DNA of 64,000 bases from Octopus vulgaris (GCA_951406725.2 OX597829.1:41602001-41666000); one strand, 5' to 3'; positions 29,693 through 58,720 are shown, counted from the stretch's first letter. Numbers and translations are program-made. The notes: generated from the letters alone by a model not told the origin.

Positions 29693-30925
29693 ACAGAAAT
29701 GGCCCTGCTTGATATGTAGAAAAGGTGTTGGGAGAAATTCCATAAGGTGTACCCAGTGCAAGTTATGGACACATAAGAGGTGTAGCAGTTTCAGTGGAAG
29801 ACTAACAGAGAAAGCAATCTTTACATATGGCAGATGTGCAGGTACATTAAACACCAAGAATGTGCAAAAATTAGACTCCCTCAAATGTCAGGGACATAGT
29901 AGACAGTTTCTGTTACCAAAGAGACCAAGTTAGTAGTGAGGAAGGTTGGTTCAAAAGCATAGATGCTAAAATAAAAATGGGCTGGGCAAAATTCAGAGAG
30001 TTACTACCTCTGTTGTAGTAAAGATTGTTTGCCAGCATAGCATGGCAGTCCTGGTTTAGAGCAAATGTTGCTGTAATTTAGCCCCAGGAGACATTGTCTC
30101 CAGCTGTCTACACGACACGATCTGTGTCCTTATATTTTTGAACAAAGGAATCTAGCATCCCCGCTCAGCTCAAAACAATATCTGTGTATCATGATTTCTG
30201 GGTTATTTCTCTTTATCGGCACATAATAATTCTTCGGCTAGAGGTGGCACTACCAAATTCCCGTTCGAAATATATAGTTTTCGAAGTGACAACTAGTTAC
30301 TGATTTATAAATTAGAAAATTACTATTTTTAAATCTCACAACGTGAGATATTCAGCAACAGTACTTTGGAGTAAAGATTGTTTGCCAACATAACATGGTA
30401 GTCCTGGTTTAGGACAAAGTACTACAAAGTACTACAAAGTACTATTGCTGAATATCTCACGTTGTGAGATTTAAAAATAGTAAGTTACTACCTCTGTTAG
30501 AAAGAAAGGGTCTCAGAGTGAAAGACAGATTGCATGATGCCTGTATATGAACAGCAATGCTACATGGCAGTGAGACATGGGCTGTGACTACTGAGGATAT
30601 GTGAAGACTTGGAAGGAATGAAGCCAGTATGCTTTGCTGAATGGGTAATGTCAATATGCATATATGACAGTGTGTAAGTGATTTCAAAGAAAAACTGGAT
30701 TATATGAGACATCAGATGTTGCATGCAAGAGAGAAGACTGCACTGGTGTGGCCATATGATGTGTATGAATGAAGATAGTTGCATCAAGAGGTGCCGGTCT
30801 CTAATTATAGAGGGAACATGTGGAAGGGGTAGATCCTGAAATACATGGGATGAAGTGGTGAAAAAGGATCTTCAGACGTTAAGAATCCCAGAGGTAAAGA
30901 GAGGTGAGCAAGACCCCTGGCAGTT
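29693..30925 (+). pseudogene. Degenerate RTE LINE 3' fragment interrupted by the insertion 30015-30482
   Basis: KWPCLICRKGVGRNSIRCTQCKLWTHKRCS, WAKFRELLPLL and MLHGSETWAVT match ORF 52876-55116. Contains stops and frameshifts. Confidence 0.85.
30015..30482 (-). mobile_element. Non-autonomous Penelope-like insertion with 16-bp TSD, direct and inverted terminal repeats and a decayed hammerhead (30183-30223)
   Basis: TSD agttactacctctgtt at 29999-30014 and 30483-30498. Direct repeat at ~30017-30059 / 30370-30412. Inverted repeat at ~30320-30373 / 30430-30483. Minus-strand motif tgtg-CCGATAA..GAAA-tcatga-TA-caca. Confidence 0.7.
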
Positions 30926-31230
30926 TGTTGTGCTTGAGAAGATATAAGTAGAAGTGTGATTGATCAGAGTAAAATAGGAATGCGTCTGGTAGAACCATGA
31001 TGATCAAATGAAAAATAGCTATAGGTAATATCCAACGACAGCTTCTATGGGTCATCATAGTACAAGCTGCCATTGGATATGACTTATAACTGTATATTTC
31101 ATTTGATCATGGAATCTACCTAACACATTTCTATTTTACACGAAACCTTATCTCATTTTTGACCAACTGGGATATACTAATATCCTCAATTGTGGATTTC
31201 CCCTCACTTTTACATGTCTCGGACTTCTCC

Positions 31231-31318
31231 CTCTCCGATGAGGGAATACTCAGCCTATGGCACCCTTAGTTAAAATGATGATCCACCAGATTGGCTATTC
31301 TAGAAACAACTGCAAGAG
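31231..31318 (+). ncRNA. Decayed Type I hammerhead motif with long stem II
   Basis: ctct-CCGATGA-gggaata..tattcta-GAAAC-aact-GCA-agag. U4C and GUA>GCA changes suggest it is inactive. Confidence 0.55.
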
Positions 31319-31344
31319 ACTTTGTATATCTTTATTCTCTAAGT

Positions 31345-31890
31345 TAAATGATAATGATGATGATAATGATTGCAATGATGATGATAATGATAATGATGAT
31401 GATGATGATGACGACGACGACGATGATGAAGATGATGATGATGATGATGATGATGATAATAATGATGATGATGATGATGATGATGATGATGAGGATGGTG
31501 ATGATGATGACGACGACGACGATGATGAAGATGATGATGATAATGATGATGATGATGATAATGATGATGATGATGATGATGATGATGATGACGATGAGGA
31601 TGGTGATGATGATGATGACGATGAGGATGATGATGATGATGACGACGATGACGATGACACTGACGATGATGATGGTGAAGAGGAGGAGGAGGAGGAGAGG
31701 AGGAGGAGAGGTGGATGATGATGATGATGATAATGATTAGGATAATGATGAGGGCATTGATAATGATGGTAGTAATGATGATGATGATGTTAATGATGAT
31801 GACAACAACAATGACAATGATGATGATAATGATGAAGAAGAAGAAGAAGAGGAGGGGTAGATGATGATGATGATGATAATGATGATGTAA
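31345..31890. repeat. (GAT)n microsatellite
   Basis: Directly visible. Source of the poly-D/M/S ORFs. Confidence 0.95.
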
Positions 31891-32227
31891 AAATTATTAT
31901 TAACAAAAAAAAAAGGCTGAAACTTGGTAAACAAACTTATCCAAATGTTTCAAACTTGATTAAATTTGCAAACTTTATCATCTCAGAAGATCTGGTACCT
32001 ACTCTTGTCAGTAAGTCATGAAGAATGCAGCGTTCTGTCCAAAGACGCCGGCAAACATCAAAGAACTCCTGCTAATCCCGTGCTGGGAATGCAATAACTA
32101 TCTTATCTTTTCTTTCGGCCAATTTGCTTTTAGACAGATTGTCTGACACAGACGCAAAGATAACTGTGAAGAAATTACAGAAGGAGAGAGAGAAGGACAT
32201 GGTCCCCATAGGAAGCATATACTTGTG

Positions 32228-55905: not shown

Positions 55906-55980
55906 ATATATATATATATTGGAAAACGGACGCTAAACGATGATGATGATGATGATGATGATATATATATATAAATACAT

Positions 55981-56360
55981 AGGCGTAGGAGTGGAAGTGT
56001 GGTAAGTAGCTTGCTTATGAACCACATGGTTCCGGGTTCAGTCCCACTGCATGGCACCTTGGGCAAGTATCTTCTACTATAGCCTCAGACCAACCAAAGC
56101 CTTGTGAATGGATTTGGTAGACAGAAACTGAAAAGAAGCCTGTATGTGTGTCTGTGTGTATATGTTTGTCCCCCCCCCCAACATCGCTTGACAACTGATG
56201 CTTGTGTGTTTACGTCCCTGTAACTTAGCCATTCGACAAAAGAGACTGATAGAATAAGTACTAGGCTTTCAAAGAATAAGTCCTAGGGTCAATTTGCTCG
56301 ACTAAAGGTGGTGCTCCAGCATGGCCACAGTCAAATGACTGAAACAAGTAAAAGAGTGAA
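55981..56360 (+). mobile_element. SINE family A, full copy; others at 16830-17228 (-), 21822-22835 (-, split), 36145-36500 (-), 51627-52025 (-) and 59212-59614 (+)
   Basis: Repeated ~400-bp sequence with a tRNA-like head and common tail. Confidence 0.85.
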
Positions 56361-56389
56361 GAGTAATATATAAACACATCACACACACA

Positions 56390-58255
56390 CAGAACCACAC
56401 TAATAAATTCAGAGTGAAATTAGTATTTCTCAGTTTTCTGTGAATCGATTTTGATAAAACTTTTCCCAGCTGATTTGCACAGTATGGCAACACCTTTGTT
56501 AGGTTTTCATTATTCTGTGTAATGTCCTTTTTTATTTCAGATTCTTCAGTTTTTGGGTAAACCACACTAATAGTGCCTCTCCTCTCTAAGAACAGTGGGA
56601 CATGGAAAAGGCCTTAACAATGAAGAAAAGTCTGTCATCATCAAAGAAAGTGCTAAAGGCATCTCTCTTCATGTCAAGGAAGAAATGATTTGATTGTGGG
56701 ACTTTCGCCAAGGAAGAAACAATCTGACTGTGGGAACTCCAAGACTGTGACAGTTAGGGATTTAAGGAATGTTGTCCTCAAGTTATGTGGGAAACTTGGA
56801 CAAAGAAGCCAAGCTATTTCCACTGCCTCTGGACGTCCTCCTGTACTGAAAACAACCAGAAATTGCATCCTCAGGACTATGGCTTCCATGCATGGACCCC
56901 TGAAACTGCCTCCTTTAACACCTCATCACAAGTGTTTTAGTTTTCATTAGACCCAAAAGTACATGACGTTAGACGGGAGTTGTGTTTTGTTCACTGATGA
57001 AGCCAGGGCGACTCTTGATGGACCTAATGGTTGGGCAAATGTTTATATCTATTTTGGAGATGAATGTTACTAATGTTTATGATGTCAACAACAGGGTGGA
57101 GGAGTCATGTTGTGGGCTGGTATCATTGAGGACTGACTTGTTGGCCCAGTCAGGGTGCCTGAATGGGTTAAAGTGACTGCAACCACCTACTGCAATCTCC
57201 TGAAGGAGGTCTTGGATCCCTGGCTAGATGACATACTGCTGTCACTTCTAAGGAATCTCATATTCATGCATGACAACACCCCCTCCCACTCTGCTAGGAC
57301 CACCCAAACATTACTAGGGTCTTACAGCAGACAAGGTGAAAGGTTTATGGTGTGGCATCTCCGGATCTCAACCCTATTGAAAATTTTTGGTCCATCATTA
57401 AACAAGATGTTTGTGCTGATGGACACCAATTTAAGTCAAAAGATATGTTTTATGGGCGACCATCAAAGTTACAGCAGAGTTACTAATAAGGAATTGAGAT
57501 TCCATGACTAATAGGGTTTTTGAAGTTGTCTGTCAAAATGGCGTTCATGTGGCTAAATAATTCATTGTCAATAAATGTTATAATAATACTATGGTATTCT
57601 GTTAAATATATACTTAATGTATGTTTAATATGTATCATTACCCTTCATTTTCTGAAAAAAAAAAAAAAAAATGTCTAGATAGGCTATTTTCATTCAAAAG
57701 CTATTAAGCATGGGTCACCCAAAAAGTGAAAAATCTGAAATAAAAAAAGAAATCGGAATTGAAATCAAAATTGCTCAAAATACAATGGAAATTGTAGTTG
57801 AGATATCAGTGCAGATGGCACGTAAAAGAACCATCCGAACGTGACTGGTACCAGTGCCGCCCTGACTGGCCTGTGCCGGTGGCTCATAAAAAGCACCAAC
57901 CGATTGTGGCCGTTGCCAGCCTCGCCTGGCACCATGCTGGTGGCACGTAAAAAGCACCCACTACACTCATGGAGTGGTTGGCGTTAGGAAGGGCATCCAG
58001 CTGTAGAAACACTACCAGATCAGACTGGGCCTGGTGCAGCCTCCTGGCTTCTCAGACCCGTCGAACCGTCTAGCATGGAAAGCGGATGTTAAACGATGAT
58101 GATGATGATGATGAAAGGGCATTACACAGAATAATGAAAACATAACAAAGGTGTTGCTATAGTGTGCAAACCAGATGGGTAAAGTTTTATCAAAATCAAT
58201 TCACAGGAAACCAAAAAATCTTAAATTTTACTCCTAAGCTATTAGCATAGTTCTG
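56390..58255 (+). mobile_element. Tc1-like (DD34E) transposon relic with ~185-bp IR/DR-type TIRs; right TIR interrupted by an RTE tail
   Basis: Left TIR 56390-~56572 is the reverse complement of ~57701-57749 plus 58114-58255. Frameshifted transposase motifs VLFTDE, IFMHDNTPSH and PDLNPIENFW. Confidence 0.85.
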
Positions 58256-58319
58256 ACTCTGTGTGTGTGTATATATATATATATGTATATTAATATTTCT
58301 AAGACTCTCTAAAGGAGAC

Positions 58320-58720
58320 TACGGCAGCGGTACTGGGTTTTAATAGTTATTGCCAATTTAACATGGCAGTTCACATCATCATCATCATCATCGTCGTTTA
58401 GCGTCCGTTTTCCATGCTAGCATGGGTTGGATGGTTTTTGAAAACCAGTGGATGTATTCCACTGAATTTAGGTAAATAATCCTTCGAACAGATGGTCAGT
58501 ATCTATGCCTGTTCTACATTGATAAAGGGCAAATACCCTGAAACTAATCTGTAGATGCCAGACCAGCAAGGGGAAGCAGCTGACCTCCCCTGTTAGAAGG
58601 TTATAATGGACTCAAGTTTGTGTCACATAGCTAGCTAGAAGCGATCGCCTCTTGGAGCTAAACAGCAGCATTCATCCTATCTTTCTGGACTGCCATGTTA
58701 GCCTGGTGATAACTATTAAT
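58320..58720 (+). mobile_element. Non-autonomous hammerhead-bearing element related to 30015-30482
   Basis: Inverted repeats 58340-58372 / 58687-58719. Shares the blocks ttcgaac, gataaag.g.aaata.ccc.gaaa, gctaaa..cagca.catt and ggactgccatg with the minus strand of 30015-30482. Confidence 0.65.
58513..58555 (+). ncRNA. Minimal Type I hammerhead ribozyme, U3:A8 core variant
   Basis: tctaca-TTGATAA-aggg caaata ccct-GAAAC-ta-ATC-tgtaga. Perfect 6-bp stem I and 4-bp stem II. Confidence 0.75.

Follow-up and report, generated by a model that had tools for sequence, protein, structure and literature searches.

An abundant octopus hammerhead retrozyme whose second RNA fold may be a Penelope-type reverse transcriptase recognition site

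A 64,000-nucleotide stretch of the Octopus vulgaris genome (GCA_951406725.2 OX597829.1:41602001-41666000; hereafter, the window) carries two divergent repeats, copy A (30014-30482, minus strand) and copy B (58288-58720, plus strand), in which a hammerhead ribozyme is accompanied by a second conserved block of potential RNA structure. What kind of element are they, and what is the second block for? An earlier note, made from the sequence, had taken them for a Penelope-dependent RNA element whose extra domain is either a signal for the reverse transcriptase (RT) or another ribozyme. We read A and B as decayed, dispersed copies of an abundant 353-nucleotide (nt) hammerhead retrozyme, with a second fold that is likely a Penelope-type RT recognition site, and give this reading as a whole a probability of roughly 0.5. 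Its parts differ in strength. The identity of the element as a non-coding retrozyme of the kind without long terminal repeats (non-LTR) is highly probable, and the role of the second domain as an RT handle, which we infer from its position, is slightly favored. The family is well supported and, as far as the accessible literature shows, new; the kind, non-LTR retrozyme, has already been described.

A and B are homologous across the whole unit of about 353 nt. Their local alignment scores 133, compared with a maximum of 92 in 500 shuffles and with 94.5 for the best of 850 window tiles outside A and B; taken by itself, the second domain reaches 56 (shuffle maximum 36.5). Over the whole unit, 183 of 329 columns are identical, so that the two subfamilies are 56% alike. 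The conserved blocks previously described lie in both copies at the expected places and in the same order; the motifs TGG(G/A)GCTAAA and GTGTC..TAG.(C/T)AGCT each have just two occurrences in the window, one in A and one in B. Identity is highest in and 3' of the second domain (34/50 at 30114-30065, then 17/25 and 18/25) and reaches only 6-9/25 in four upstream bins. Each copy spans slightly more than one unit. Their common homologous forward end is terminus 1, and both inverted arms end at terminus 2, about 50 nt beyond it.

Read along the minus strand, copy A consists of an inverted arm, three 10-nt repeats, a 49-nt copy of the terminal segment and a full unit:

30014-30482, minus: copy A, entire insertion, with inverted arm, slippage repeats and about 1.1 units (sequence, alignment, reads)
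30483-30498, no strand: upstream copy of a 16-bp target-site duplication (TSD), within an RTE-like long interspersed nuclear element (LINE) fragment (flank alignment, empty-site joints)
29998-30013, no strand: downstream copy of the 16-bp TSD (flank alignment)
30433-30482, plus: inverted arm, the segment of about 50 nt between the two 3' termini, equivalent to a Penelope 'tail' (51/53 identical to 30318-30370)
30415-30444, minus: three 10-nt repeats at the arm junction, likely template slippage (sequence)
30366-30414, minus: 5' direct copy of the terminal segment, a partial tandem of 49 nt (43/47 identical to the 3' copy; read junction)
30311-30364, minus: segment 3' of terminus 1, with the partner strand of the CAGCA block (30353-30360), a TCTC/GAGA hairpin (30334-30348) and the common 3' terminus 2 (30311-30316) (loose ends, fold prediction, pair comparison)
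30285-30301, minus: conserved hairpin upstream of the hammerhead (6/6 pairs with majority letters; 2 compensatory changes relative to B)
30229-30276, minus: 5' strand of a long predicted extension of hammerhead stem I, partner 30131-30179 (main helices at probability 0.9-1.0)
30181-30225, minus: type I hammerhead, decayed in this copy, predicted cut between 30187 and 30186 (sequence, majority letters)
30066-30128, minus: second domain, made up of a GACAC/GTGTC hairpin, a TAGC(C/T) stem with AGCU/UGG internal loop and inner hairpin, and the CAGCA block (homology, fold prediction, pair comparison)
30014-30065, minus: terminal segment with a TGCCA/TGGCA hairpin, ending at terminus 1 (fold, pair comparison)

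Copy B is laid out as follows:

58288-58376, minus: inverted arm of 89 nt, the terminal segment plus the tail of about 50 nt, ending at terminus 2 against (TA)n (alignment)
58377-58434, no strand: stub of an unrelated common repeat at the inversion junction (a 31-nt piece matches 8 places in the window, its own included)
58435-58720, plus: forward part of B, ending at terminus 1 against (TA)n (sequence, alignment)
58446-58464, plus: upstream hairpin of 7 bp (probability 0.99)
58513-58555, plus: type I hammerhead with a U3-A8 core, stem I of 6 bp, stem II of 4 bp and stem III of 1 bp, predicted cut after 58549 (sole match of a strict window scan)
58609-58670, plus: second domain (homology, pair comparison)
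58671-58720, plus: terminal segment; the CATTCATCCTA block leading into it matches the A-family majority (reads, alignment)

The repeat stub at 58377-58434 sits exactly at the inversion junction of B and may be a later insertion or the product of a template switch while B was inserted.

These layouts bear the marks of Penelope-type insertion. The 16-bp TSD claimed for one of the elements is that of copy A, whose host is an RTE-like LINE fragment, a diverged relative of the LINE at 52876-55215. The left flank of A matches this LINE to 53462 and the right flank from 53474; because the two alignments overlap there, we conclude that one LINE was split at the 16-bp TSD. B is flanked by (TA)n runs and has no clear TSD. 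Inverted terminal copies had been noted in both elements: the arm of A stands as described, whereas the arm of B is longer than was claimed and carries the next stretch of about 50 nt of the unit, which matches the continuation of A (score 72 versus a shuffle maximum of 48).

Public sequencing reads reveal the family to which A belongs. Contigs of 4 of 24 listed public runs were aligned to 29900-30560 at 80% likeness, and the read evidence below is that listed for 40 of 79 variant rows, 15 of 125 joints and 24 of 1,394 loose ends. Matching contigs number 7,877, 4,955, 5,609 and 752 in the four runs, and parts of the A region are present in sequencing runs from five organisms. In all four runs (4/4) a joint leads from 30414 back to 30064, a step of 351 with two letters between, which together give a head-to-tail unit of 353 nt; the contigs are too short to span arrays with two full hammerheads. 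Loose ends at 30311-30316, that is at terminus 2, likewise recur in 4/4 runs with AT-rich, mutually dissimilar flanks, and empty A sites appear among the listed joints. Summed depth, which is no copy number, rises to 7 x 10^5 in run X1 (single contigs 15-40) and suggests that the A family has thousands of copies or more. With the terminal hairpin taken as 1.0, depth drops to 0.46-0.53 in the second domain and to 0.15-0.25 directly past the hammerhead cut, while the figure upstream of the cut is 0.02-0.05; most of the matching sequence consists of short 3' fragments. This fall towards the 5' side fits 5' truncation, though divergence of A lowers the upstream figures, and the fall near the cut site is indistinguishable from dips due to A's own differences. 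One run guessed to be RNA contributes the 752 matching contigs, the junction included; contigs show neither strand nor circles, and some DNA may be included.

Head-to-tail junctions, the 16-bp TSD, the inverted 5' arms and a tail of about 50 nt at one end together identify a non-LTR retrozyme with Penelope-type marks. The earlier proposal of a non-coding, non-autonomous hammerhead element is thus upheld, and the 5' truncation, the partial tandem, the inverted 5' copy and the one-end tail are the insertion marks expected of a Penelope-dependent one. Comparison with published retrozymes, here and below through the accessible portions of the cited papers, places the unit in familiar company. Its size is within the range of metazoan non-LTR retrozymes (Cervera and de la Pena 2020, PMC7229834; Li, Clavereau and Pollet 2026, bioRxiv 10.64898/2026.07.22.740005), which measure about 350-390 nt in mussel and 330 and 350 nt in axolotl. 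As in those elements, the unit is short and tandem (range about 150-450 nt), non-coding and below 50% GC, has one type I hammerhead per unit and both tandem and dispersed copies, duplicates a target site of more than 4 bp (16 bp in A), is predicted to form a self-paired circle, and shares its genome with Penelope-like elements. The hammerhead core is canonical in the A-family majority and complete, as U3-A8, in B; in copy A itself it is broken.

Could the copies instead be truncated pseudo-LTR remnants of an autonomous Penelope element, with the conserved blocks belonging to its 5' untranslated region or to the decayed start of its open reading frame (ORF)? The insertion marks are indeed those of Penelope elements, and in the anole element the ORF begins inside the hammerhead, with RT start sites in coding sequence (Frangieh et al. 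2024, PMC11167929). The unit, however, closes on itself at 353 nt, and stops interrupt all three frames after the hammerhead in both A and B, so that the option of decayed coding sequence, which the note had itself raised, was not borne out. The longest stop-free stretch over six frames of the closed majority unit is 73 codons; downstream of the hammerhead no frame is conserved, the longest stop-free stretches being 38 codons in A and 29 in B. Within the window there is no ORF in or beside either copy and no joining to RT/GIY-YIG coding sequence, and there is no ORF-like end among the loose ends listed. Nor does the hammerhead have the minimal shape found in pseudo-LTRs; rather, its 6-bp stem I and 4-bp stem II are canonical (PMC4209133). 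We therefore regard a pseudo-LTR origin as improbable.

The hammerhead itself differs from its first description, in which A8 served as a family mark. In run X1, position 8 of the A family is G in 99% of aligned depth and position 4 is U in 91%, so that A8 in copy A reflects decay and the A-family core is canonical C3-G8. The majority letters restore this core, the 6-bp stem I and the palindromic loop 3. Only B, with its complete type I motif, has a U3-A8 core, a covariation that had been described before in Penelope-like elements of Schistosoma (Cervera and de la Pena 2014, PMC4209133); unlike the minimal Schistosoma form, B has canonical stem sizes, and the A family is C3-G8. The stem I helices of A and B differ by 3 compensatory changes. 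The stem sizes agree with those of the hammerheads termed canonical in PMC4209133, a type that in tandem repeats is cut as dimers.

The second domain had been proposed as a conserved structured domain. That a structured region is conserved is supported, but the domain is one arm of a larger fold and, alone, is no more stable than shuffles: isolated domains of about 106 nt give z-scores of -0.84 (A) and +0.87 (B). Rather, in our models the conserved helices extend through the whole unit, beyond the block first described. The predicted fold combines the long stem I extension, which B forms too, with a multibranch domain closed by the CAGCA helix. Introducing 19 listed majority letters lowers the energy of the circle from -79.9 to -103.8 kcal/mol, a value that 0/200 random placements of the same 19 changes attain. 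The closed unit with majority letters has a z-score of -5.2 (0/100 shuffles as stable), and the circle of copy A one of -2.28. Across 7 helices outside the hammerhead, 39/39 pairs form with majority letters, 37/39 in copy A and 35/39 in B; ten pairs differ between the subfamilies, six of them compensated and four broken in B, and a few broken pairs are expected in B as an old single copy.

Individual helices bear out this picture to different degrees. In the TAGC/GCTA stem foreseen in the note, a majority letter at 99% creates an additional pair, and one pair changes from C-G to U-A between the A family and B; a 99% majority letter likewise completes the upstream hairpin, which had been spotted before the reads were compared. 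The GCTG/CAGC pseudoknot that was to accompany the stem found no such backing: it has 4/4 pairs in A and 3/4 in B with no compensation, and the CAGCA block pairs better downstream, where it forms an 8-bp helix with a block inside the tail (8/8 in A; 6/8 in B, with one compensatory change). This long helix brackets terminus 1. The AGCU/UGG internal loop is identical in both copies, and unpaired letters, including CATTCATCCTA, are also kept. Such conservation of primary sequence in single-stranded blocks is what one would see if the blocks acted as DNA, either as an internal promoter or as an endonuclease-recognition site, with the pairings as a by-product; the Penelope endonuclease of Drosophila virilis requires tail sequence in the DNA (cited in PMC11167929). 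We consider this quite improbable, since the compensatory changes and the pair-restoring majority letters point to RNA structure.

If the blocks act as RNA, they may still act as a scaffold, whose helices serve a compact, stable circle and the folding of the hammerhead with no specific recognition by a protein. The conserved helices do run throughout the unit, the stem I extension and the upstream hairpin among them, and a high degree of self-pairing is predicted for the circles of known animal retrozymes (PMC7229834). A pure scaffold, however, does not predict that identity between the subfamilies should peak in and just after the domain (34/50, 17/25 and 18/25, versus 6-9/25 upstream), that unpaired letters (the AGCU/UGG loop and CATTCATCCTA) should be conserved too, or that copies should end directly 3' of the domain. 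A retrozyme with a merely architectural second domain is thus a possibility to be reckoned with, if a doubtful one.

A second ribozyme in the element, the other option originally raised, is unlikely. That the domain is another self-cleaving or ligating ribozyme draws on its layout of a stem, a conserved asymmetric internal loop and a variable hairpin cap, which is that of the smallest ribozymes, and on the fact that A and B each have a 5' partial copy starting just 3' of the domain. Like twister-sister-like (lantern) ribozymes (PMC11620745), it has two stems around a conserved internal loop and a variable cap; unlike them, its loop is 4x3 rather than 5x6 nt and lacks the CA dinucleotide at which they cut. 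The proposed pseudoknot is unsupported, depth slopes at the domain with no step, 5' ends do not cluster there among the rows listed, and a single hammerhead per unit suffices for processing. The Rfam search that the note had called for, run on the whole window and both elements at E up to 10, yielded no family match for the elements, only sub-threshold matches to microRNA, small nucleolar RNA, small RNA and frameshift-element families; this blank is weak, since both true hammerheads were missed too. A match to MIR6140 merely reflects the inverted arm of A. A fold like that of the hepatitis delta virus ribozyme was rejected on inspection against the consensus features of that ribozyme, as it has neither a GG before the would-be P4 nor the nesting. 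We hold a self-cleaving or ligating domain to be very improbable, and find it equally far-fetched that the AGCU/UGG-loop stem and its neighboring helices form a small ribozyme of an undescribed class, giving a circle with two catalytic RNAs.

The reading of the second domain as a likely RT handle draws on the Penelope marks in A and B and on the most conserved part of the unit lying directly 5' of the two termini. The anole Penelope element requires for its activity an RNA stretch directly 3' of the hammerhead; its protein nicks AT-rich DNA on both strands and begins reverse transcription at two internal sites, one at either end of the tail (PMC11167929). Inverted 5' copies and a one-end tail are typical of Penelope elements (Craig et al. 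2021, PMC8557442), as are 5' truncation and partial tandems, AT-rich or microsatellite targets and copy ends downstream of the hammerhead (PMC11167929; PMC8557442). A and B depart from these elements in having no ORF, in a tail of about 50 rather than 30-40 nt, and in a first terminus about 170 nt from the cut, compared with about 90 nt in the anole element (PMC11167929).

Several observations weigh against this reading. Retrozyme circles are generally self-paired (PMC7229834), so that the fold needs no special role. Terminus 1, seen in both copies, is not among the loose ends listed (24 of 1,394), and summed depth, which does not count copies, falls at the places where A departs from the family. 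The majority letters restore only 2/4 pairs of hammerhead stem II among the variant rows listed (40 of 79). The circle of B, 10 stray bases included, has a z-score of -1.3 with 9/100 shuffles as stable, and its TAGCT stem is absent from the minimum-energy fold. Covariation is drawn from two subfamilies only, in helices picked after the sequences had been seen, and 2 of the 6 double changes hinge on the register of the inner hairpin. A further helix, a guessed G-rich hairpin downstream of the hammerhead, failed outright with a probability of 0.0, its strand being part of the stem I extension. Finally, the window yielded no coding element that shares the 3' end of A and B: the sole Penelope-like ORF found there (28255-29298) has an unrelated 3' end (68-198 of 200 shuffles score equally).

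With the RT handle as the preferred reading, the life cycle might run as follows. Retrozymes are known as tandem type I hammerhead units with linear and circular RNA and a proposed use of Penelope enzymes (PMC7229834; bioRxiv 10.64898/2026.07.22.740005). The unit is arranged head to tail, as seen in contigs. By analogy with known retrozymes, its type I hammerhead would cut tandem transcripts, probably as dimers given a stem III of 1-2 bp with a palindromic loop, and the products could circularize. The predicted circle would be branched: the CAGCA helix would close the multibranch domain, and the long stem I extension would carry the hammerhead. The next step would be binding of the multibranch domain by a Penelope RT/GIY-YIG protein, which would copy internally from the two sites, about 50 nt apart, just 3' of that domain, presumably primed, as in the anole element, by nicked AT-rich DNA. 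Most of the resulting copies would be 5'-truncated, with their ends at these sites; partial tandems would span the cut site, and inverted arms would bear the tail.

Relatives were sought beyond the octopus. Pattern scans returned 33 and 0 viral matches, 0 and at least 119 metagenome matches and 3 in prokaryote genomes. Among the 155 matches listed, four have an inner hairpin of at least 5 pairs, one other has a hammerhead-like stretch and none has both; the best scores outside the motif are 100.5 against A and 93 against B, for loci of up to about 940 nt. We take all of these as chance matches, and thus find no homolog of A or B in the public contig collections among the matches listed. The literature searched yielded no description of the family or of such a domain; the supplements of PMC7229834 and bioRxiv 10.64898/2026.07.22.740005 may hold the family. 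The main text of the 2026 Octopus vulgaris repeat annotation (PMC13282606), as far as accessible, contains neither 'ribozyme' nor 'hammerhead'.

Microsatellites and LINE fragments abound in the animal DNA of the window, whose other features are these:

28255-29690, plus: 5'-truncated Penelope-like element beginning in (TA)n, 300 bases from copy A and with no sequence in common
28255-29298, plus: ORF of this element, a 347-amino-acid frame with a Cys-rich linker and a GIY-YIG-like end; nearest Atlas clusters carry HTH_animal and, in part, GIY-YIG; no match in Pfam or PDB
29590-29625 (approximate): decayed minimal hammerhead 3' of this ORF
44703-44730, plus; 62996-63026, minus; 50646-50687, minus: loose minimal-hammerhead candidates unrelated to A and B, possibly the ends of other Penelope families
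39361-41250, plus: uninterrupted 629-codon frame matching Glyco_transf_22 (Alg9-like mannosyltransferase; E 8e-17), a single long exon or a retrocopy
4-3090, plus: nearly complete LINE ORF2 with an endonuclease-like start, an RVT_1 match and one stop at 589-591
52876-55215, minus: RTE-like LINE frame of 779 codons, whose diverged relative hosts copy A
14414-15618: large palindrome of two 602-nt arms, 88% complementary and 1 nt apart; a related stretch lies at 63165-63663
13084-13911, minus: LINE-like ORF fragments with a zinc-knuckle-like part and an endonuclease-like end, interrupted by a microsatellite

That animal retrozymes borrow Penelope enzymes has been proposed from co-occurrence and from similarity to pseudo-LTRs, with the RNA signal left undefined in the accessible text of those studies. 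Nor do these descriptions, as far as accessible, report a conserved domain besides the hammerhead or map the copy ends (PMC7229834; bioRxiv 10.64898/2026.07.22.740005). A and B differ from the elements described there in having a branched domain beside two fixed 3' termini, common to subfamilies only 56% alike and known from sequence alone. Should the fold be only a scaffold, the octopus family would add one more to the known retrozymes. As it stands, the family offers a compact candidate for that signal, with a 353-nt unit, very many copies, two subfamilies with the same fold and two termini just 3' of it; and because an in vitro Penelope priming assay exists (PMC11167929), the question of the handle is directly testable.

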